A stretch of 64,000 nucleotides of DNA from an uncultured bacterium (lineage in GTDB: Bacteria > Patescibacteriota > Dojkabacteria > J137). A program made the position numbers and the translations under genes. A model generated the notes under the pieces. That model saw only the letters and a program-made list of their open reading frames with translations, was not told the origin of the DNA and did no database searches. This document shows positions 4,572 to 22,523 of this stretch, in pieces; the first letter of the stretch is position 1; each line of letters begins with the position of its first letter. The stretch is from NCBI GenBank assembly GCA_963700155.1, contig OY969472.1:517059-581058 (forward strand), in the 5' to 3' direction.

Positions 4572-4705
4572 GAAGCAATTTTATGAAAGATTTCTTACAA
4601 AGTTCTGACAATTTTAACTCTCTATATTTAATAAATAGCACCTGATTTCCTCAATTAATGAGCTCAACTTATCCGAATTTAAATTGAAATCCCAATAATA
4701 ATCTA

Positions 4706-5347
4706 TTATTTTTTTATAAGTTCATCGCTTAAATAATTCTTGAATAAACAATAATCATAAAATGAATATCCATCTTCGTATAACTCTGGCATCGTAAATC
4801 TTTTTCCAGGATAATGTAAATAGCATCCTTCAAGACAGTACCATAACAAACTTAAGATTCCTCTGTAATCTTCATATAAATAATAACCAACGGCTTGATC
4901 AACAGAAATATTTAAATCTGTTATCTTTACAATCCATTGATTTAAAGGATGTGTTAAATTATGAACTAACACATTTTCTGGTTTTAAATCTCTATGTGCC
5001 ATGTGATTACTATGCAAATATCTAATTCCTTCAATTACCTGACTTAAAATAAAAAACATTCTTTCAGGGTCAATAACTATTTTTTGAAGGTTAGACTCCA
5101 TCAATGGATAAAATTCAACTGTCTTTACTTTATTTCTAAGCCTACCTTTTATTTTAGCTTGAAAAACATCTAGTACCGTAAGAATATTTGGGTGCTCTAG
5201 TGTATAAGCAAGATTATTTTCACCATTAGCACGATTAACAATTCTCATTGCAACTGTTCTACCATTTCTGGGAATAGTATATTCATAAACACTACTAAAA
5301 TAACCTGATCCGATTTTATTTGCCGTACTTAAGTTTATTTTCTCCAT
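4706..5347 (-). CDS. Minimal eukaryotic-like protein kinase domain protein (Bud32/RIO-sized, atypical catalytic residues)
   Basis: Gly-rich loop GSGYFSSVY, β3 VAMRIV (Arg in place of the usual Lys), HPNIL αC region, catalytic loop HRDLKPENVLV, and DLN where DFG is expected. No APE or activation segment. 213 aa. Its start lies 1 nt past the tsaD stop. Confidence 0.6.
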   Translation of the reverse strand: MEKINLSTANKIGSGYFSSVYEYTIPRNGRTVAMRIVNRANGENNLAYTLEHPNILTVLDVFQAKIKGRLRNKVKTVEFYPLMESNLQKIVIDPERMFFILSQVIEGIRYLHSNHMAHRDLKPENVLVHNLTHPLNQWIVKITDLNISVDQAVGYYLYEDYRGILSLLWYCLEGCYLHYPGKRFTMPELYEDGYSFYDYCLFKNYLSDELIKK

Positions 5348-13201: not shown

Positions 13202-14431
13202 ATGTACAAAATTAATATGCGAAAAAAAATATTAATAAGCTTTATCTTTTTACAAGTTATTTTAATATTAGGCTCAGGTTTTGTAAGTGCTGATGATATT
13301 CAAAGCTTATCCACTCTTAATATTGACACTTCTATCACAGTAAAAGATACTACTGGTTTTGGAGATCCCACACAGATTATTGTTACTCCTGTTTTTATTA
13401 ATAATGGAACAGAAGTAAACACAGATAAATGGGTTAGAGGTATTTATTATTACACTATCGATAAATTAGGATTTCAAAACATTCCTTTTCATTATTTAAT
13501 TACAGAAGATGGTGGAGTTTTTAAAGGTAACAGCTCAGGTGATGAGAAAAAAATTAACATAGAAGGAATTGGCGATAATGCAGTTGTAGTTGGATATTTA
13601 AGTACAGATGAGGCGGGCGCTATAGCGCCCGCCTCAGAACAACCATTATCAAATCTGCTGCTAAATATAGCTAATCAAGATTCTATAAATCCTGAAAATA
13701 TATCAGCAAGTGGAATAAATTTTATTAAAGATAGTTCAAGCAATACAATAACAATTCAAAAAGCTAAAGTTGGGAGTGAGTGGAGTATAGGTATTAATAA
13801 AATTGTAAATAATATTAAAAATAAGTATTCTCCAATTACAAAAAAATATAGCGTTGAAATAACTCAGGTTACATTACCAACAAACGAAATAACACCTGGT
13901 GATGAAGCTACAGTCTCGATTAAAATAAAAAATACTGGTAAGAATGGATTTTATAGTGGTGCTAATTCTGAAATACTTTTAACAAAAGATAATGGAATTT
14001 CCAGCAACTTCTATATAAATAATACATGGCTCAGCCAAACTCAAACTGGAATAATGTCAGATGGTATATCTCTTCTCCCAGGTGAAGAAAAAGGGTTTGA
14101 TTTTAAAGTCAAAGCTCCACTGGCAACCGGAGATTATTCAGAAAACTTTATTTTGAAAACTGCAGGTGGAACTACTATAAAAAGTAACAAAAATATTGAG
14201 TTAAAAATTAAGTTAAAAAAAACTAATAAACAAATTATTGAGATAAAAACAAGCTATGATTATGTAAATGTAAGAAGCAAACCTTATGATTCAGCCCCTG
14301 TTTTAAGAAAAGTTACTGCAGGAGAAAGATATTTCCTTCTAGATCTAAATGAAGATACCCTTTGGGCAAAAATTGACTTAGGGGGTGGAGTAGAAGGTTA
14401 CCTTCCCGCTTGGGATTTGAAATATATTTAA
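13202..14431 (+). CDS. Secreted cell-wall-associated protein: PGRP/amidase_2-like domain plus C-terminal bacterial SH3 domain
   Basis: Signal peptide. GFQNIPFHYLITEDGGVFKG resembles the amidase_2 core, but the Zn-ligand His is not evident. C-terminal SH3b-like segment (YVNVRSKPY…GYLPAWDL). Confidence 0.45.
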   Translation: MYKINMRKKILISFIFLQVILILGSGFVSADDIQSLSTLNIDTSITVKDTTGFGDPTQIIVTPVFINNGTEVNTDKWVRGIYYYTIDKLGFQNIPFHYLITEDGGVFKGNSSGDEKKINIEGIGDNAVVVGYLSTDEAGAIAPASEQPLSNLLLNIANQDSINPENISASGINFIKDSSSNTITIQKAKVGSEWSIGINKIVNNIKNKYSPITKKYSVEITQVTLPTNEITPGDEATVSIKIKNTGKNGFYSGANSEILLTKDNGISSNFYINNTWLSQTQTGIMSDGISLLPGEEKGFDFKVKAPLATGDYSENFILKTAGGTTIKSNKNIELKIKLKKTNKQIIEIKTSYDYVNVRSKPYDSAPVLRKVTAGERYFLLDLNEDTLWAKIDLGGGVEGYLPAWDLKYI

Positions 14432-14442
14432 TAAAATTCTAA

Positions 14443-15930
14443 ATGCCAAAGGTAAAAATAATACTAATTATTGTTTTTGTGCTTTCTTTTTTTGTTAGTT
14501 TATTGCTTTTTCTAAAGTTTAATACTGTTGGATTTGAACAATCATTTAGGGCATATTTGGCATGGTATAACCCGACTGATGATAATTTAAAAAATTTCTA
14601 TGATATTTCGACTAGTCAAAATTTTTTATCTTCATTAAATTTTGAAAATCAGACTTTTAAAAACGGGACTGAATTGTTTGATTTCTTAAGGAATGAACAA
14701 AAGACAAACAATTCAGTCCCCGCAGTAGCTAAAGATAATCGAGACAGCAAAGTTCCAATTCAATTTGATGAAGAGAATATTGACGATACAAACCTTCCTC
14801 AGAAAATTACTTATGTATCACCTGGAGTTCTTGGATACTATGTATATAATTATGATCTAGTAAGATTCTCTCCTGATAAAAATACTCTTGAAAGCAAATA
14901 TTTAAATTTAAAAGAGAGTACTATTGATCCTATTTCAAAAAAGAATGTTACTGGTACAAAAGATTTAAAAACAGCAAAGACAGAAGTTAATAGTTATTTT
15001 AATAAACTTATAACTGATGTTGGCAATACAAACACATATGATGGCTTAACAAAAGAGAGTTTTAAAAAACTTGAAAACCACGAGGTTCTTGAAAATATTT
15101 CAGTTAATTCAATAAATTTTGTTGAAAAGAACTTTAAAGAAACTGAATTAAAAGATAACAAATTAATTATTGGAACGATAAATATTCACTTAGAAAACTG
15201 TTTTAAAGATTTTTCAGAAGATTTGAGTTTTTCTATCAATACCGGTGACATTCAAATTAATGACTTAAATGATTTTGTAAGTAACTTATGTAAAAAGCAA
15301 TTCGTTAAAGTTAATGGGGTAATTACCGGAACTTGTACTGATTGTACTTATTATCCAGCTGATAAATGGCATGCTTTAAGATCTGACTATACTCCCAAAA
15401 CTCAATTGATTGATTTCGCTCCGGGAGGACAATATATTAATACACAAGCATATAACGACTTTAAAGATTTATACAACGCAGCAAAAGCAGATGGAATATA
15501 TATTTATGTAACTTCAGGCTATCGTTCTTACAATACTCAAGTTGCGACATATCAAGGCTGGGTAAACACTGAACTTGCTGCTGGTTATTCTTTGTCTGAG
15601 GCAGAAGCTATTGCTAATACTTATTCAGCTCTTCCTGGGTACTCAGAGCACCAGCTTGGAACAGCGTTAGATTTAAATGGAGCAGGATGTGAAATTTCTG
15701 ATGGATATTGTTCAACAAACGAAACAATCTGGAACTGGCTTGCGGAAAATGCTTATAAATATGGGTTTGCACAATCATACCCTGAAGGAAAAGAGTCAAT
15801 TACAGGATATACCACCGAAAGGTGGCATTACAGGTGGATTGGGAAAGACTTAGCTGAAGAATATAAAAAAGCTGGAGGAGGAACAAAAATTACTTTAAAT
15901 GTATTTTTATTGAATAAAGGATTATATTAA
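14443..15930 (+). CDS. Membrane-anchored D,D-carboxypeptidase/peptidase M15 (VanY-like)
   Basis: N-terminal TM. C-terminal YVTSGYRSY…GYSEHQLGTALDL…W motifs fit the M15B Zn-peptidase family. Confidence 0.7.
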   Translation: MPKVKIILIIVFVLSFFVSLLLFLKFNTVGFEQSFRAYLAWYNPTDDNLKNFYDISTSQNFLSSLNFENQTFKNGTELFDFLRNEQKTNNSVPAVAKDNRDSKVPIQFDEENIDDTNLPQKITYVSPGVLGYYVYNYDLVRFSPDKNTLESKYLNLKESTIDPISKKNVTGTKDLKTAKTEVNSYFNKLITDVGNTNTYDGLTKESFKKLENHEVLENISVNSINFVEKNFKETELKDNKLIIGTINIHLENCFKDFSEDLSFSINTGDIQINDLNDFVSNLCKKQFVKVNGVITGTCTDCTYYPADKWHALRSDYTPKTQLIDFAPGGQYINTQAYNDFKDLYNAAKADGIYIYVTSGYRSYNTQVATYQGWVNTELAAGYSLSEAEAIANTYSALPGYSEHQLGTALDLNGAGCEISDGYCSTNETIWNWLAENAYKYGFAQSYPEGKESITGYTTERWHYRWIGKDLAEEYKKAGGGTKITLNVFLLNKGLY

Positions 15931-16388
15931 ATTTCGGATTGAACTCTTTGTTTTGCAATTCCAATTATTGCTTTATATGCAAGATAATGTACTGTACCAT
16001 CGTCTAGTAAAACCCCAGCTTCAATTAATTCTTTTATTTCATCATCAGTTATTTGAATACTTTTTGGACTTAGAGCAATAGCTTCAAGTTTTGAATAGAG
16101 ATCTTTATTATTTGCATTCAACATTAATATATCAGCCTCAAGAGATATCTGTGTTTCATTTAAAGCCGCTTGTACTAAATTCCTTGCTTTAGTTGTAAGT
16201 ATAAAAATACCAAGCTTTTCTTGGAGAAAACCAAAAGAAACTAATTTCTCTCCTAATTCTTTTTCTATATGAACAGGTGATTCTGGTAGCCGTCTTGAAG
16301 CTCTTATTACCAACTTATAAACATCTGGAAATTCATCTTCTAAAGATTCAAAAATTGCCAATATACTTTTTTCACGATAATTATCCAT
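15927..16388 (-). CDS. Hypothetical protein with two copies of a ~70-aa repeat (paralog of the next gene)
   Basis: EFPDVYKLVIRA…GIFILTTKARNLVQAAL and a second similar module. Last gene of the femAB-like operon. Confidence 0.45.
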   Translation of the reverse strand: MDNYREKSILAIFESLEDEFPDVYKLVIRASRRLPESPVHIEKELGEKLVSFGFLQEKLGIFILTTKARNLVQAALNETQISLEADILMLNANNKDLYSKLEAIALSPKSIQITDDEIKELIEAGVLLDDGTVHYLAYKAIIGIAKQRVQSEI

Positions 16389-16398
16389 AAATTTTAAA

Positions 16399-16665
16399 CT
16401 AAGATTCCCTTTGATTAATTTTTATACTCTGTAAAGCACCTTCAGTTAATTCGTAAATGCCATTATTCAAAACTATTACTCCTAATCTTTCCAATCTAGA
16501 TTTTAGTTCTTCAGAAAAACTATTTATAATACGGGCTCTAACTTCCTCTGATTGATAGTAACATCGAACCAGTATTCTATAAACTTCAGGAGTTTCTTCG
16601 TAAATATTCTTTAAATGTGTTGAGGTTATAAAATTTCCGATAGCTTCAAAGTACATATCTATCAT
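16399..16665 (-). CDS. Hypothetical small protein (single copy of the same ~70-aa module)
   Basis: ETPEVYRILVRCY…GVIVLNNGIYELTEGALQSI parallels the N-terminal half of the 153-aa neighbour. Confidence 0.45.
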   Translation of the reverse strand: MIDMYFEAIGNFITSTHLKNIYEETPEVYRILVRCYYQSEEVRARIINSFSEELKSRLERLGVIVLNNGIYELTEGALQSIKINQRES

Positions 16666-16670
16666 CTTAA

Positions 16671-17582
16671 TTATCTAAAAATTAAGACTTGTCTAGCTCT
16701 AGCAGCAATTTGAAAGAGTTTATACCAAAAAGGTTCAATGATAAAATCGACTGTTTCTGCATAATTAATAACTCTCCCTCCAAAGCCAACTTTAAATCTT
16801 GAAAATCCATCATAAATTATCTCTCCACTTTCTGATTTACCAACTGATTTAATTCCCCATAAATCTAAACTTTTAAATCCATTTTGTTTTCCCCATTGGA
16901 TAATTTCCCAAACTAATGCATATGGAGCCATAACATTTTTAAATTCATCACTTGAACCTCCATATGGATAATAAATTACTTCTTCATATAAAAATAATAA
17001 CCAGGAGGCTAGTGGTTTTCCTTGAAAATATGCTGTAGCGATTGTTACAATTTTATCCGATTTTAAAGAATTCCATACTGTAGTTATATATTCTTTGCTT
17101 CGTCCATGGTAACCTTGACGAATAACAGTTGCTTCATAAAGTTTTAGGAATTCAGCAAAAGCATCTTCAGAGTCTGATATTTTAACTTCAACTCCTTTTT
17201 TGTGTGCTAAATTTAAGTTGTATCTATGCTTTTGCTTCATAGAGGCTAATAATTCTTCATCACTTATTGTTAAATTAATAGCTGTATTTTCTTGAAGATG
17301 AACTGGAATTCCTGATTTAAATTGATATTGAGAGGGAAGAGTTGCATTTTCAGAAATTAAATTTTCTGGGTCAATTGTTACATAAACACACTTAGCTTCT
17401 TTAGCTTTTCTATGCAGCTCTTCCCAATTTATCTTTGTTAAATCCGGACGTGGCATATATCCAACTGTTTTACCTATCAATGGTAGAGTAGTTGTTTGAA
17501 AAAAGTAACCTCCTACATCATAAACTTGATTTCCAAGACTCCTTTTACATTCCTTCCAGTATTTTGATTGTAAAAAATGCAT
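16671..17582 (-). CDS. FemAB-family peptidoglycan interpeptide-bridge aminoacyl transferase
   Basis: FemAB/GNAT-like pattern: …LDLWGIKS…FKVGFGG. 303 aa. Confidence 0.65.
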   Translation of the reverse strand: MHFLQSKYWKECKRSLGNQVYDVGGYFFQTTTLPLIGKTVGYMPRPDLTKINWEELHRKAKEAKCVYVTIDPENLISENATLPSQYQFKSGIPVHLQENTAINLTISDEELLASMKQKHRYNLNLAHKKGVEVKISDSEDAFAEFLKLYEATVIRQGYHGRSKEYITTVWNSLKSDKIVTIATAYFQGKPLASWLLFLYEEVIYYPYGGSSDEFKNVMAPYALVWEIIQWGKQNGFKSLDLWGIKSVGKSESGEIIYDGFSRFKVGFGGRVINYAETVDFIIEPFWYKLFQIAARARQVLIFR

Positions 17583-17583
17583 A

Positions 17584-18666
17584 TTAATATCTATCCTTTC
17601 TATAACTCCAGAAATCTATAGCTCTATGTAGTAAATATCTTAAATTATCATTATAAATTTCCATTGGACCAACATAATTAATTTCCTTTCCACCAAAACT
17701 TCTCTTGAATTCAGAAACCCCATTCATAGGATTTTTTGCCTTCTTGTTTTCAGGTAAAGATTTAGGCAGAATTCCCCACATATTATATTTTCTGAAACCT
17801 TTTTCTTTAGCATATTTCATTATCTCCCACTGTAAAAAATATGGAGAGCGGAGCTTTGACATAGTTCTATCAGATGTAGAAGCTCCATGAGTATAATAAG
17901 CTGTTTCATTATAGTAATTAATCAAAGCTCCGCTAATATATTTGGCTCTATATCTTGCTAAGAATATATCCGTCATTCCTTTAGGATTCAATGCATCAAA
18001 CTGCTTTTTGAAATATTCAAAATCATAGTTTCCAAAACCTTTTCTTTGAGTAGTTTCATTCATCAAATCTGAAAAGGCTTTAACTTCTTCAATTGTAGTA
18101 GCTTTTACTAATTCTAGTTCACTTCTTGATGACCGATTTATATTATATCTGGTCGAATCGCTCATTTTCGAGCGCAACTCATCCTCATTTTGATCTAAAT
18201 CTAACTCCCAGACATCTTTAGCTTGAGCAGGGGCGAGGGATGTTTTAAAGCCTAAATTCTTTAAATTTTCACTATATTTTTTAGGGAGCAGTGGATCAAA
18301 TCTGAAAAGAGTAAGGAAATTTTGGAATATATAATCCTGCATAAAGTTTTTTAACTGTGTAAAAAAATCTGCAAATTCTTGTTCATTCATAGGATCACCA
18401 ACTATAACTGGTCCATATGGAACATAAGCATATTTTATAAATTTCCTTCTGTAAATTTCTATATATAAAATTCCTATTTCATATTCTCTGTCGCCAACTT
18501 CAAGGATAATAAAATATTGATCAATTTCTTTTCCTAATGATTTTTGAAAATCGATCCAATTAATTGAAGAAAGAAATGAAGAATTTTCTGCTTCTAAATT
18601 TATTTTTTCCCATATTTGTTTTTTATCTTCACTATATTTTTCAAATTTTAGTAGCACAGAAATCAA
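17584..18666 (-). CDS. FemAB-family peptidoglycan interpeptide-bridge aminoacyl transferase (second paralog)
   Basis: YNMWGILP…EFKRSFGG. 360 aa. In tandem with the previous gene. Confidence 0.65.
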   Translation of the reverse strand: MISVLLKFEKYSEDKKQIWEKINLEAENSSFLSSINWIDFQKSLGKEIDQYFIILEVGDREYEIGILYIEIYRRKFIKYAYVPYGPVIVGDPMNEQEFADFFTQLKNFMQDYIFQNFLTLFRFDPLLPKKYSENLKNLGFKTSLAPAQAKDVWELDLDQNEDELRSKMSDSTRYNINRSSRSELELVKATTIEEVKAFSDLMNETTQRKGFGNYDFEYFKKQFDALNPKGMTDIFLARYRAKYISGALINYYNETAYYTHGASTSDRTMSKLRSPYFLQWEIMKYAKEKGFRKYNMWGILPKSLPENKKAKNPMNGVSEFKRSFGGKEINYVGPMEIYNDNLRYLLHRAIDFWSYRKDRY

Positions 18667-18722: not shown

Positions 18723-19349
18723 TTATTCATCATCTAATAAATTTTTCAATTGTCTTGATTTTGCAAAATTTATAAATCCCCAAGATATACCTATCATAAA
18801 CAGAATTATTCCAGTATTTTTAATTAAATCATCAGATAAAGATTGACCTCTCACTTCTTCTGACATTTTTACCTTTGCAATTAAATACCAAATGTTATCA
18901 ACTAGTGTATCCATTTCCTCTTTTGTAAAACTGGGTCTATATTGTGAATTATATAATGGAGTGTTTTGAGCCTCACTAATATACGCATCAACAACTTTTT
19001 CCAAATCATCTTTTATTAATGCGTATTGTTCAAGAACTTTATTAATCTCAACCTCTAAATCATTAGATAAGTTATAAGTTTTAAGATCTTTCAAAGTTTC
19101 AATAATAGTTCTAATTTTCCCACTTGCTATATAAACTTGAGATTCCCTTAGTTCAGGATTATCTATATAGAAAACATTTTGCATATCACTATAAATCCAT
19201 TGGTTTAAATTATTTATACTACTATTAATCCCATAAATAGATATATCATTTGGATATTTTAGAAGTGAAAAAATTATAATAGCTGTGAAGTATAAATATT
19301 CAAATGGACGAAGGATTGATGATTCCGTTTTTTTGAATTTATCCATCAT
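18723..19349 (-). CDS. Hypothetical membrane protein
   Basis: TM helices near the N-terminus and another near the C-terminus. Confidence 0.4.
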   Translation of the reverse strand: MMDKFKKTESSILRPFEYLYFTAIIIFSLLKYPNDISIYGINSSINNLNQWIYSDMQNVFYIDNPELRESQVYIASGKIRTIIETLKDLKTYNLSNDLEVEINKVLEQYALIKDDLEKVVDAYISEAQNTPLYNSQYRPSFTKEEMDTLVDNIWYLIAKVKMSEEVRGQSLSDDLIKNTGIILFMIGISWGFINFAKSRQLKNLLDDE

Positions 19350-19396: not shown

Positions 19397-20542
19397 TTAA
19401 GCATCTCTTCTTAGAGGCATTAGAAGGTGAACAAATTTTGAATCATCTTTATCTTTAAAAACTGAAGCTGCCAATGGACCTTTAGTTTCAAAGATTATGG
19501 TGTCTCCTTTTATATGACTGACAACATCAGATATATATCGTAAATTGTAAGAAGCATTCAAATCACTTTCTCCATTTACAGAAGTCACTGGAATTAAAGT
19601 TTGATTTTCACCAACTTCAGCTACTACAGATTGCAACATAACAGTTGCGTTTTCTAGGTTGAGGTCAAAAAGTGTTTTGTATCCTAAATTACTTCTAGCA
19701 AAAGTATTAATGATCCTAATCGCAGATTCCAAATCTGACTTTTTGACCTCAAATGAATAGCTGAAAGAATCAGGCATTATCCTTTTATAATCAGGATAAG
19801 GTCCCTCTAATAATCTTATGCTGAATTCTATCTCTTCAAATTTAAAAATAACTTGGGATTTACTTTGACCTAAATAAACTTCAATACTATCAACATCAAC
19901 ATAATCTTGAATAATTTTAACCAATTCGCTTAAATATCTTGCCGGAACAATAACTTGTTCTGTTGGATATTCATTAACATCTTTTACTTTTGCACTACGC
20001 TTTGAAAGTCTAAAACCATCTAAACCAATAAAATTGATCTCACTTTTTTCTTTATCATATTCAAATAAAATTCCACTTTGCTGTATTTTTCCAGCTGATA
20101 AATCTGTTGATGAAGCAAAAATTACTTTATCCATTGATGCTAAAAATTCCTTTGCTGAAATTACAAACAGTGGAGTTTCTGAAACTTCTGGTAAAACAGG
20201 GAATTCGGTTGCCGGGATAGTAGTAAAATTAGCTTTTGAGTTTTCTGTTACAACATCTACTACATTATCATTCAAACTTAGTTCAACGTTATCTCCTACT
20301 GCTGCTGCAACAAAATCTGCAATGTATTTTGCTGATACAGTAACGCTTCCTTCTTGTTCAACTACTCCAGGTATCCACACATTTATCCCCATATCTAAGT
20401 TTGTTGCTGATAGTTTTAAACCATTCTTATTAACATCTAAAAGAACGTTTGAAAGTACTGGTATATTTGGTTTTAAACTAACAGCTCTACTTGTATATTG
20501 TAATGACTTTGAAAGGTTATCTCTGTTTAGTTTGATTTTCAT
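19397..20542 (-). CDS. dnaN: DNA polymerase III beta sliding clamp
   Basis: N-terminus MKIKLNRDNLSKSLQYTSRAVS…PVLSNVLL is typical DnaN. Three-domain length of 381 aa. Confidence 0.85.
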   Translation of the reverse strand: MKIKLNRDNLSKSLQYTSRAVSLKPNIPVLSNVLLDVNKNGLKLSATNLDMGINVWIPGVVEQEGSVTVSAKYIADFVAAAVGDNVELSLNDNVVDVVTENSKANFTTIPATEFPVLPEVSETPLFVISAKEFLASMDKVIFASSTDLSAGKIQQSGILFEYDKEKSEINFIGLDGFRLSKRSAKVKDVNEYPTEQVIVPARYLSELVKIIQDYVDVDSIEVYLGQSKSQVIFKFEEIEFSIRLLEGPYPDYKRIMPDSFSYSFEVKKSDLESAIRIINTFARSNLGYKTLFDLNLENATVMLQSVVAEVGENQTLIPVTSVNGESDLNASYNLRYISDVVSHIKGDTIIFETKGPLAASVFKDKDDSKFVHLLMPLRRDA

Positions 20543-20856: not shown

Positions 20857-21795
20857 ATGTTTAATCCTATAGACAATTTAAAATTAAAAGAAGTTGAAAA
20901 TTCAGAAAATAAAACTATTGGAGAAATTGCACAGAAACTTTCTAATTTAATGAGTAATAAATATTTTTTTTACTTTTTTTCTTCTCATTATCACTCTCCA
21001 CAATTAGATATTCATAGAGTTGATGACTTAAATTCTTTTTTATATAAATTTAAAGGTGTTTTTAGAGACATGAGTTCCTATCTTAAAAAGGATAAGGATT
21101 TTATAAATCTATTTCTTGAATTATTAAATTTTTTAGTTAAAGAAAAAGAATTTTATGAAGCTGTTAAATTACTAGATGAAACATTTGGATTTAATTTTCT
21201 ACACTATGAATGGATACAAGAAATTTATAAAAAAGCAATGGATTCTGAAGAGTATTTCCAAGCTTATTACATAATAAAATTAATTGAAAATAGAATTAAG
21301 TTGTTAATGATTACATTTCCAAATGATTCACCACAAGAACTTTTAGAAAAAGAGTATAGAGAATGTTTAGGAATTTTATTGAATAACTTTCTTGATGATA
21401 CTTCTGCAATAACTGAAAGTGAATTATTCGAAAAAACAAAAACATTACCGAAAATTTTAGCAATATTGAAGAATGATGAAATACTAGGTTTTAATATTTT
21501 GAAATCTCGAGACTATACTCCATATTTCATGGATATAATTTTATATGATTTTATTAAAAGAATTGTAGATTTAACTTGGACATTTAGAGGTGAAATATAT
21601 GATATACAATTTGATTCTGAAAATTTGCCTGACATATATTATCTTTATAATATTTCTACAAATACTAGTAAGTATCTTACATTACCAGAAAATAAAATGG
21701 TTCATATTTCACGAGTGGCTGAATATTTAGAACTAAAATTAAAAGATATTGAGTTCATTTTTATTGAAGATAAAAAGCAAGATGTGGAATCTTAA
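20857..21795 (+). CDS. Hypothetical protein (312 aa) inserted between dnaN and dnaA
   Basis: ORF only. No motif recognised. Confidence 0.4.
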   Translation: MFNPIDNLKLKEVENSENKTIGEIAQKLSNLMSNKYFFYFFSSHYHSPQLDIHRVDDLNSFLYKFKGVFRDMSSYLKKDKDFINLFLELLNFLVKEKEFYEAVKLLDETFGFNFLHYEWIQEIYKKAMDSEEYFQAYYIIKLIENRIKLLMITFPNDSPQELLEKEYRECLGILLNNFLDDTSAITESELFEKTKTLPKILAILKNDEILGFNILKSRDYTPYFMDIILYDFIKRIVDLTWTFRGEIYDIQFDSENLPDIYYLYNISTNTSKYLTLPENKMVHISRVAEYLELKLKDIEFIFIEDKKQDVES

Positions 21796-21800
21796 ACTTA

Positions 21801-22523
21801 TTAATTTTCTAAACTACTATAATATGGTGTTTTTTCTAGTAATTCTGGAGGTAGAATAGATAATAAAGATAAATCATTATTAATTCTATAATCATATAGA
21901 TAAATATTATAGGAATCTGTATTCAAACCGTCTTTTCTGTATCGAATATATATATCAATGTGTGCAAGTTTTAAAGTTCCATCAAGATCAAGTTCTTCTG
22001 TAAAAATAAACTTAACTTGCTCAATATTTTCTTCATTGACTCCTATTTTGTAGTTATCAACAAAAAATTTTTTTACAGCTGGAGTAAATCTGGCTGAATA
22101 TTCTACGACCTTAAAGCCATGTATATTAGTATTATTCTTATCTATAAGCTCATGAATTTGGTTTAAAGTAGTAACATTAATAATAGCTGGCTCGAAAAAA
22201 ACTCCTTCTGTATCTGTTTGTTCAATAATTAATGATCCATTTTCGTCAAATTTAAAAACAGCTAGATTATTTCCAAAATAATACTCAAAATGAATATCAG
22301 AAATTGTTAAATCTGAATTCATCTCGCTCCTAGATAAATTTATTTCTCTATAAAGTATATTAAAAAGGGTATATTGAGTTGTCGGCAGTTTAAAAGATTT
22401 TCGAAAATCTACGCCTGACGAAGCTATTCCAGATAAAATACTTAAAATTAAATAAAGAGATAATATCCTTTTTAGAATAAAAGGACGGTTAAAATTGTTT
22501 TGAATATCATCAATTTTATCCAT
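21801..22523 (-). CDS. Hypothetical membrane-anchored protein immediately downstream of dnaA
   Basis: N-terminal TM helix. Lies 5 nt after the dnaA stop. Confidence 0.4.
   Translation of the reverse strand: MDKIDDIQNNFNRPFILKRILSLYLILSILSGIASSGVDFRKSFKLPTTQYTLFNILYREINLSRSEMNSDLTISDIHFEYYFGNNLAVFKFDENGSLIIEQTDTEGVFFEPAIINVTTLNQIHELIDKNNTNIHGFKVVEYSARFTPAVKKFFVDNYKIGVNEENIEQVKFIFTEELDLDGTLKLAHIDIYIRYRKDGLNTDSYNIYLYDYRINNDLSLLSILPPELLEKTPYYSSLEN

Follow-up and report, generated by a model that had tools for sequence, protein, structure and literature searches.

A 64,000-nucleotide stretch of DNA (the window) carries two small genes directly behind a tandem pair of FemAB-family transferase genes, an arrangement that raises the question of whether the small proteins serve the transferases or merely neighbor them. 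A preliminary description made from the sequence had proposed four tandem open reading frames. All four were found on the minus strand at 15927-18666 (window coordinates), in the same direction and with intergenic gaps of 1, 5 and 10 nt. They encode Fem1 (17584..18666, 360 residues, TTG start, pI 8.7), Fem2 (16671..17582, 303 residues, pI 8.7), a protein of 88 residues designated wH88 (16399..16665) and a protein of 153 residues designated wH153 (15927..16388).

The assignment of the two larger proteins to the FemAB family was borne out. Fem1 and Fem2 matched Pfam FemAB (PF02388) with E-values of 6.4e-30 and 3.8e-30 (105.5 and 104.7 bits versus a cut-off of 24) and the GNAT-type acyltransferase domain Acetyltransf_6 with E-values of 2e-9 and 3e-13, and the two are paralogues with 27% identity (E 2e-26). 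Solved Fem structures matched by phmmer were 1ne9, 4ii9, 6snr and 1lrz, the nearest being S. aureus FemX 6snr for Fem1 (E 1.7e-12) and Weissella viridescens FemX 1ne9 for Fem2 (E 1.2e-10). The kinship with Firmicutes FemX/FemA/FemB and MurM/MurN is distant, as judged from phmmer E-values of 1e-10 to 1e-12, and the host is a candidate-phyla-radiation bacterium rather than a member of the Firmicutes; the pair also fell far under the NCBIfam equivalog cut-off (60 bits versus 500). A C-terminal F-K...F-G-G motif, in W. viridescens FemX the site of the catalytic residue Lys305, is legible as GVSEFKRSFGG in Fem1 and GFSRFKVGFGG in Fem2, whose lysines may be equivalent to it. The antiparallel coiled-coil insertion of S. 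aureus FemX comprises residues 235-297 (PMC8280954). The alignment of Fem1 with 6snr jumps this coiled coil (chain residues about 238-301) with no matching insertion in the query, and both Fem1 and Fem2 are shorter than the 420 residues of S. aureus FemX. Sequence comparison thus indicates that the helical arm of the staphylococcal type (FemA/FemB/FemX, MurM) is absent from both proteins. They are as short and armless as W. viridescens FemX, a UDP-MurNAc-pentapeptide:L-Ala transferase (1ne9, 4ii9), except that the N-terminal domain of Fem2 is approximately 50 residues shorter, with residue 117 aligned to residue 167 of FemX. By family, Fem1 and Fem2 are predicted FemX-type aminoacyl-tRNA-dependent transferases of the ordinary short type. 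The proteins may use aminoacyl-tRNAs to build a two-step side branch on the stem peptide of peptidoglycan; to this extent the multi-residue bridge suggested earlier from the two paralogues is a reasonable inference.

The tandem arrangement of Fem1 and Fem2 resembles that of femA-femB and murM-murN in Firmicutes. Fem1 is 63% identical to the orthologue in the related locus L002, and Fem2 is 59% identical to that in L002 and 42% identical to that in Ca. Dojkabacteria L006, Fem2 being the form kept as the sole Fem gene in more distant relatives. The idea that such tandem genes are unusual gained no support, Fem1 and Fem2 pairs recurring in most of the related loci sampled (L008-L011, L014, L016) and in the distant loci L020, L023 and L024.

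The stop codon of wH153 shares 4 nt with the stop codon of a convergent plus-strand gene (14443..15930) encoding a VanY/LdcB-type M15 peptidase of 495 residues (Pfam VanY, E 6.6e-33) that was also matched by the NCBIfam VanY-B/G and LdcB models. Next to it is the plus-strand gene for AmiSH3 (13202..14431), a secreted protein of 409 residues with a C-terminal SH3 domain (Pfam SH3_3, E 8e-8) that, from a reading of its sequence, may be amidase-like. The conserved block is anchored upstream by dnaN (19397..20542, minus strand), 87% identical to dnaN of L002 and recognized from the DNA_pol3_beta domains of its counterpart in L001, a locus identical to this one. Between dnaN and Fem1 is an orphan gene (18723..19349, minus strand) for a protein of 208 residues, probably a membrane protein, that gave no family match in profile searches; its positional orthologue in L002, also of 208 residues, is 19% identical (E 5e-5). 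VanY is kept downstream of Fem2 in L002, L008, L009 and L011, and orthologues of AmiSH3 flank the block in L002, L006, L008, L012 and L015. A Mur ligase is also encoded near the Fem genes, besides the peptidase and the amidase-like/SH3 protein, and dnaA, dnaN and holA adjoin the locus. Promoter and terminator scans were at chance level, with the single terminator-like site falling inside the wH153 coding sequence, and Rfam and tRNA scans returned no match near the locus. A Shine-Dalgarno-like motif was present in none of the 14 genes examined and is thus uninformative on translation of the small open reading frames.

The two small proteins had been described as built from one module, present once in the 88-residue protein and twice in the 153-residue protein. 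The common module was confirmed for the N-terminal half of wH153. wH88 is homologous to residues of about 14-82 (26-28% identity, BLASTP E 2e-6), with a Smith-Waterman z of 9.7 (0 of 500 shuffles), and a profile of the three orthologues of 153-155 residues matched wH88 at E 7e-4, the only other match in the six-frame translation of the window. The second copy is less clear. In pairwise comparisons the C-terminal half was not significantly similar to wH88 (z 1.9) or to the N-terminal half (z 0.5); profile-profile comparison of the halves with hhalign aligned 52 columns in register at a local P of 0.0018, and the order H-H-loop-H-hairpin-H occurs twice in the AlphaFold model of wH153. These last results lean weakly toward repetition, and an ancient internal duplication is plausible. 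wH88 is much nearer to wH153 than to P0003 or P0004, and would be a recent local copy of the N-terminal half of wH153.

The fold of the small proteins was predicted confidently from only three to four sequences (AF2, pLDDT 89.5 and 79.4). The N-terminal unit of wH153 (16155..16388, minus strand; residues 1-78, the module common to wH88; pLDDT 89.5) was modeled with helices at 9-19, 21-32 and 43-51, strands at 55-58 and 61-64, and a helix at 66-75. The C-terminal unit (15927..16154, minus strand; residues 79-153 plus the stop codon; net charge -5) was modeled with helices at 80-93, 95-106 and 115-123, a strand at 127-129 and a helix at 135-152. In the models both proteins have a three-helix bundle followed by a beta-hairpin wing, the winged helix that the preliminary description had raised for the 88-residue module. 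An EF-hand reading of the C-terminal half (troponin C, E 0.15) was rejected since the model is a winged helix and not an EF-hand. Foldseek searches of the PDB returned no match under E 0.01 for the small-protein model; JetA, MukF, Cdc6 and TFIIH p52/Tfb2 were among the best structural matches. Sequence searches of Pfam, NCBIfam, PHROGs, PADLOC and the PDB gave no significant match, the best in Pfam/NCBIfam being the Mnd1 HTH (E 0.035, 14.8 bits versus a cut-off of 23.5) and none having E < 0.01. The family is acidic, with pI values of 4.5-5.1 (5.1 for wH88) and net charges of -3 to -10. The confident predicted fold, the protein-level paralogy and the orthologues at the same position in two other lineages establish the small open reading frames as real genes.

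When 1.84 billion representative proteins were searched exhaustively, the family was recovered as four clusters carried by three lineages only, the window included, with two members outside the window. Word-indexed searches found no protein other than the small-protein queries, a four-sequence profile added nothing to the two members from the exhaustive search, a related-locus search with the small-protein alignment gave no confirmed locus in genome or metagenome contigs, and tblastn of wH153 gave no match in phage genomes. Nor was the family found in any of 18 related loci from metagenomes or in 2 from genomes. In each of the three carrier lineages a family gene follows Fem2, or an ogt gene lying between the two, at a distance of 5-50 nt, co-directional and with no predicted terminator. 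In two of the three the 155-residue orthologue has ogt as its direct neighbor, on opposite sides and at distances of 5 nt and 40 nt, and the neighboring Ogt proteins of L002 and L003 contain the PCHR active-site motif. The Fem and VanY genes keep 56-63% identity between the window and L002, and DnaA and DnaN keep 83-87%; the small protein keeps only 34%, which marks the family as fast-evolving. Strain-level selection had no variation to be measured on: L001 matches the window at 100% identity, and no differences separate L003, L004 and L005. The Fem2 identity matrix was compatible with the three carrier lineages being a clade or not.

About seven related lineages keep the dnaN-Fem1-Fem2-VanY-amidase block without the small-protein family, and their variable slots are filled by genes for NUDIX, MazG, dUTPase, Ogt, Tag, MFS and 5-hmdU-kinase-like proteins. 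Two of the slot NUDIX proteins in sister lineages bear an N-terminal winged helix. The slot between dnaN and Fem1 varies too, containing a DnaJ-domain protein or a Tag glycosylase in other lineages. Descent of the small proteins from Ogt or from the N-terminal domain of the NUDIX proteins in the same slot was rejected for want of significant similarity.

The evidence tips somewhat in favor of a reading, taken as a whole, in which the locus is a conserved cell-wall block (dnaN...Fem1-Fem2...convergent VanY plus SH3-domain protein) of a small AT-rich candidate-phyla-radiation genome that is probably related to Dojkabacteria, wH153 is a tandem and wH88 a single winged helix, the two genes represent a new, lineage-restricted, fast-evolving family of acidic winged-helix proteins, and Fem catalysis does not depend on these proteins as a general cofactor. 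wH88 and wH153 would occupy a variable slot that in sister lineages is taken by small genes of unrelated kinds, chiefly ones serving DNA repair and the hygiene of the nucleotide pool. The small proteins are probably not dedicated Fem helpers because only three lineages carry them and unrelated genes fill the slot elsewhere. They would most likely act as protein-binding winged-helix adaptors or regulators, with wH88 perhaps pairing with its homologue, the N-terminal unit of wH153; a classical basic mode of binding DNA or tRNA is less likely for either protein. The folds are likened to protein-binding winged-helix modules of the SMC-kleisin proteins JetA, MukF, ScpB and MukE, of TFIIH p52 and of Orc/Cdc6. 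ScpB and MukE are small acidic tandem winged-helix proteins that act through protein contacts, the mode proposed here for wH153 and wH88. Identity as an SMC accessory of the ScpB/MukE type was rejected, with no SMC_ScpB match at E up to 1 and with Fem, VanY and dnaN as neighbors. Against the favored reading stand the constant location of a family gene near Fem2 described above, the expected electrostatic complementarity of the basic Fem proteins to the acidic winged-helix proteins, and the small number of known carrier lineages.

It also counts against the favored reading that small winged-helix proteins of bacteria mostly act as DNA-binding regulators and that overall acidity does not preclude contact with DNA. 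It is possible, although doubtful, that wH153 is a transcription regulator controlling the fem operon or its neighbors by binding an operator, with wH88 a truncated paralogue that modulates it through heterodimers. All members are acidic, and helix 3, at the recognition position, has a net charge of 0 in the N-terminal unit of wH153 and -4 in the C-terminal unit (helix 115-123, DDEIKELIE). The wings have net charges of 0 and -2 with almost no basic residues. Among the three orthologues the N-terminal unit contains an invariant A-S-R-x-L-x-x-x-P motif; R32 is the only invariant basic residue of the unit, and the would-be HTH helices are set apart by a 10-residue loop in place of a tight turn. 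No HTH family in Pfam/NCBIfam was matched at E < 0.01. The proteins are also outside the sequence families of the MarR, ArsR/SmtB and PadR regulators, and differ from them in acidity, in having no conserved basic recognition helix or wing and, for wH153, in having two units per chain instead of one unit and a dimerization helix.

The role first suggested, handling of tRNA or substrate for the Fem enzymes, fared poorly. The small proteins would, for example, dock on Fem1 or Fem2 to present, select or exclude aminoacyl-tRNAs or precursors, substituting for the coiled-coil arm that both enzymes lack. Adjacency to Fem2 in all three lineages (the window's gaps measure 5-10 nt) is consistent with this role, as are complementary charges (pI about 4.5-5 versus 8.7) and a 102-residue open reading frame between Fem1 and Fem2 in L008 with marginal similarity to the small proteins (z = 4.2). 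Against it, Fem pairs of similar divergence (L008, L009, L010/L011, L014, L016) and lone Fem2 genes (L006, L012/L015) occur without the family. Moreover, acidity makes a protein a poor binder of tRNA, ogt, NUDIX and MFS genes unrelated to Fem chemistry are housed in the slot as well, the small proteins evolve much faster than the Fem enzymes, and the likewise armless W. viridescens FemX was fully active when purified, with no partner protein, on acylated RNA helices of 22 nt (PMC2655667). A dedicated accessory is therefore unlikely. The result comes close to what the preliminary description had named as telling against its proposal, a common domain unconnected with Fem genes, save for the Fem2 adjacency in the three carrier lineages. 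Quite unlikely is a variant in which the acidic proteins are lineage-specific partners of FemX-type transferases, serving as tRNA-mimicking or scaffold subunits that gate the choice of aminoacyl-tRNA or couple Fem1 to Fem2; the open reading frame of L008 would then belong, in diverged form, to this fast-evolving class of accessories. A tie to DNA repair or nucleotide hygiene instead of the cell wall, in which the family might for example partner or modulate the Ogt alkyltransferase encoded next door, is very unlikely. The proximity of ogt in two of three lineages, the gene content of the sister slots, the winged helices of two slot NUDIX proteins and the location beside dnaA, dnaN and holA all favor it, but ogt is absent from the window, where two copies of the module are nevertheless kept. 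Further, the acidic small proteins have no similarity to the Ogt DNA-binding domain (Pfam DNA_binding_1) and no significant similarity to the NUDIX N-terminal domains, and wH153 contains no cysteine.

If the favored reading is correct, the outcome is mostly one of tidying up: the Fem pair is ordinary and widespread in this candidate-phyla group, and the already very large winged-helix superfamily gains a further orphan family from the two small genes. Two points are of modest wider value. Across the clade the cell-wall block by dnaN is conserved, but small genes for nucleotide hygiene and DNA repair, together with orphans, gather in its insertion slots; it can serve as a useful marker for studying how reduced genomes gain and lose genes. 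That an alignment of three sequences led to a confident orphan fold indicates that structure can place even very small families for which sequence searches give nothing. Should the small proteins instead bind the Fem enzymes, the view of Fem transferases as acting alone would change, and a partner of FemX-type transferases would give the Fem family its first described protein cofactor.

The window is AT-rich (G+C ∼30%) and belongs to a contig of 1.14 Mb. The four genes lie on the minus strand with exactly the coordinates assigned in the preliminary description. Fem1 (17584-18666, 360 aa, TTG start) and Fem2 (16671-17582, 303 aa), the tandem FemAB-family transferase genes, are followed by ORFs encoding the small winged-helix proteins wH88 (16399-16665, 88 aa) and wH153 (15927-16388, 153 aa), the co-directional genes being separated by spacers of 1, 5 and 10 nt. 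Upstream of Fem1 on the same strand are a 208-aa orphan, dnaN and, farther away, dnaA, while downstream of wH153 are convergent genes encoding a VanY/LdcB-type M15 peptidase and a secreted SH3-domain protein, then holA. The stop codons of wH153 and VanY overlap by 4 nt at their convergent 3' ends (15927-15930). The same 4-nt overlap is kept in the related locus L002 (10465-10468), with no intergenic terminator. Since a Mur ligase is encoded elsewhere in the window in addition to these cell-wall genes, the organism plausibly makes peptidoglycan.

The 208-aa orphan between dnaN and Fem1 (18723-19349, minus strand) has hydrophobic segments at the N- and C-terminus and is only 19% identical (E 5e-5) to its 208-aa positional counterpart in L002; in other lineages this slot contains a DnaJ-domain protein or a Tag glycosylase. 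The dnaA-dnaN interval (20857-22523) contains two orphan genes, of 312 aa (plus strand) and 240 aa (minus strand), both missing from L002. The cumulative GC skew reached its minimum at ∼22-24 kb, consistent with a replication origin beside dnaA. A Shine-Dalgarno-like motif was found in none of the 25-nt regions upstream of 14 window genes, including those starting at 16665, 16388, 17582 and 18666; these regions were simply A+T-rich, and translation initiation in this genome may be independent of such motifs.

Fem1 and Fem2 each matched Pfam FemAB with an E value of about 1e-30, and Acetyltransf_6 was also matched, bearing out the assignment of the two large genes to the FemAB family. The proteins are paralogues (27% identity, E 2e-26), are basic (pI 8.7) and share an F-K...F-G-G motif near the C-terminus. 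The nearest solved relatives are FemX of W. viridescens and FemX and FemA of S. aureus. The coiled-coil domain of S. aureus FemX comprises residues 235-297 (PMC8280954), and residues ∼238-301 of that chain were skipped in the Fem1 alignment. Since the alignment jumps over the coiled coil, Fem1 and Fem2 are of the short type, like FemX of W. viridescens, in which the helical arm is likewise absent, and unlike S. aureus FemX. Family membership and the neighbouring cell-wall genes suggest that Fem1 and Fem2 may perform a two-step branch addition to the stem peptide.

The preliminary description had proposed that a module is present once in wH88 and twice in wH153. The first part was upheld, as wH88 is homologous to residues ∼14-82 of wH153 (BLASTP E 2e-6) with a Smith-Waterman z of 9.7, a score reached by none of 500 shuffles. 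Furthermore, a profile restricted to the three orthologues of 153-155 aa retrieved wH88 at E 7e-4 as the sole other match when all six frames of the window were searched. A second copy within wH153 was unsupported by pairwise comparison of its C-terminal half with wH88 and with the N-terminal half (z 1.9 and 0.5), although profile-profile comparison of the halves gave a local P of 0.0018 with 52 columns in register and the same order of elements occurs twice in the predicted structure. An ancient internal duplication within wH153 is plausible but unproven.

The AlphaFold model of wH153, for which the input comprised only three sequences, was confident (pLDDT 89.5, pTM 0.80) and predicts a tandem pair of winged-helix-like units, the first composed of helices 9-19, 21-32 and 43-51, a hairpin at 55-64 and helix 66-75, and the second of helices 80-93, 95-106 and 115-123, a hairpin at ∼127-133 and helix 135-152. 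The wH88 model (pLDDT 79.4) showed a canonical winged helix between N-terminal and C-terminal flanking helices. Acidity is common to all four members of the family, with pI values of 4.5-5.1 and net charges from -3 to -10. The helix in the recognition-helix position has a net charge of 0 in the N-terminal unit and -4 in the C-terminal unit, the wings are neutral or acidic, and R32 is the only conserved basic residue.

Neither wH88 nor wH153 matched a Pfam, NCBIfam, PHROG, PADLOC or PDB sequence family, and phage homologues were not found. When 1.84 billion representative proteins were searched exhaustively with HMMER, the family gained no members beyond P0003 and P0004 (155 aa each). The small proteins form a new sequence family that is confined to a few lineages and has a very common fold. 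The papers searched yielded neither a winged-helix protein linked to FemX nor a detailed account of Fem genes in this bacterial group. P0004 is encoded in L002, a contig of 28.7 kb that shares synteny with the window and has the order dnaN, the 208-aa gene, Fem1, 5-hmdU-kinase-like protein, dUTPase, Fem2, Ogt, P0004 and convergent VanY. Identities to the window were 83% for DnaA, 87% for DnaN, 63% for Fem1, 59% for Fem2 and 56% for VanY; the lowest among these pairs was the 34% between P0004 and wH153, indicating fast divergence of the small protein. P0003 is encoded on short contigs in the order Fem2, P0003, Ogt. Thus, the 153/155-aa gene is shortly downstream of Fem2 in all three lineages and directly adjoins ogt, on either side, in two of them. 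The shorter protein wH88 was found in the window only. Its similarity to P0003 and P0004 (z 2.7 and 0.9) is far below that to wH153, which points to an origin by recent local duplication.

A search with Fem2 recovered 20 further loci from genomes and metagenomes, none of which encoded a family member even with the HMMER filters off and E values up to 10. The closest named genome recovered with Fem2 was a Candidatus Dojkabacteria MAG (42% identity for Fem2 and 65% for DnaN), so the organism is probably a Dojkabacteria-like member of the candidate phyla radiation. Of the conserved block, this MAG has just dnaN and Fem2 together with the convergent SH3 protein. Gene maps and Pfam scans showed a conserved frame of dnaN, Fem1, Fem2 and convergent VanY and SH3 protein in lineages about as distant from the window as L002 (Fem2 47-64% identity), while the positions upstream of Fem1, between the two Fem genes and downstream of Fem2 are slots whose contents differ lineage by lineage. 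These include NUDIX hydrolases in L008 (6021-6758, minus strand), L011 (2396-3106, minus strand), L012 (2254-2769), L014 (192-626), L015 (657-1172) and L016 (3616-4221), with a winged helix fused N-terminally to the NUDIX domain in L008 and L011. Also present are MazG and a GNAT (L016), dUTPase and the 5-hmdU-kinase-like protein (L002), Ogt (L002, L003), Tag glycosylase (L012, L013), an MFS transporter (L009) and small orphans (L008, L009, L011).

Nucleotide-hygiene and DNA-repair genes are thus repeatedly interleaved with the cell-wall block beside dnaN. The L002 protein of 323 aa gives a Pfam match to HMUDK_hel (5-hmdU DNA kinase, helical domain) at E 5e-105; it and a dUTPase/dCTP-deaminase-like gene are inserted between Fem1 and Fem2 (L002, 7153-8562) on a candidate-phyla chromosome, and both are missing from the window. 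Elsewhere, such genes are known from thymidine hypermodification in phages. Between the Fem genes of L008 is a 102-aa orphan ORF (4690-4998) that shares the motif E-x-P-D-[VI]-Y-x-x-V-I, its ELPDIYYDVI resembling EFPDVYKLVI of wH153 and ETPEVYRILV of wH88. The similarity to wH153 was marginal (z = 4.2, 4/1000 shuffles) and not significant with other members; the ORF may encode a very diverged relative.

The acidity, the neutral or acidic wings and the scarcity of conserved basic residues fit a protein-binding winged helix better than the typical DNA- or RNA-binding type, the charge pattern of which is different. We infer that wH88 and wH153 would work through protein contacts and that wH88 may pair with its homologous unit in wH153. 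A conventional operator-binding regulator is disfavoured by the charge and is unlikely. The position next to Fem2 in all three lineages could reflect a lineage-specific Fem accessory, which is rendered quite improbable by related Fem operons that lack the family. A protein cofactor for the Fem transferases is slightly more doubtful still. Purified FemX of W. viridescens alone works on 22-nt acylated RNA helices (PMC2655667), and the activity of this armless enzyme by itself reinforces the view that the small proteins would not be general cofactors of Fem catalysis. Least probable is a partner of Ogt or of the nucleotide-hygiene genes, a role suggested by the adjoining ogt in two lineages. The preliminary description was largely correct in its observations and correct in its reading of the enzymes, and its proposal that the small proteins are Fem accessories was unsupported.

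Tandem FemAB-family pairs also occur in the distant metagenomic loci L020 (4543-6692), L023 (3-1995) and L024 (999-3105), with 26-31% identity to Fem2, indicating that paired Fem genes, considered unusual outside Firmicutes in the preliminary description, are widespread in uncultured bacteria. Overall, the absence of the winged-helix family from the 20 loci and the variable filling of the slots indicate that the family of wH88 and wH153 is one among many occupants of a variable slot beside a common Fem pair.
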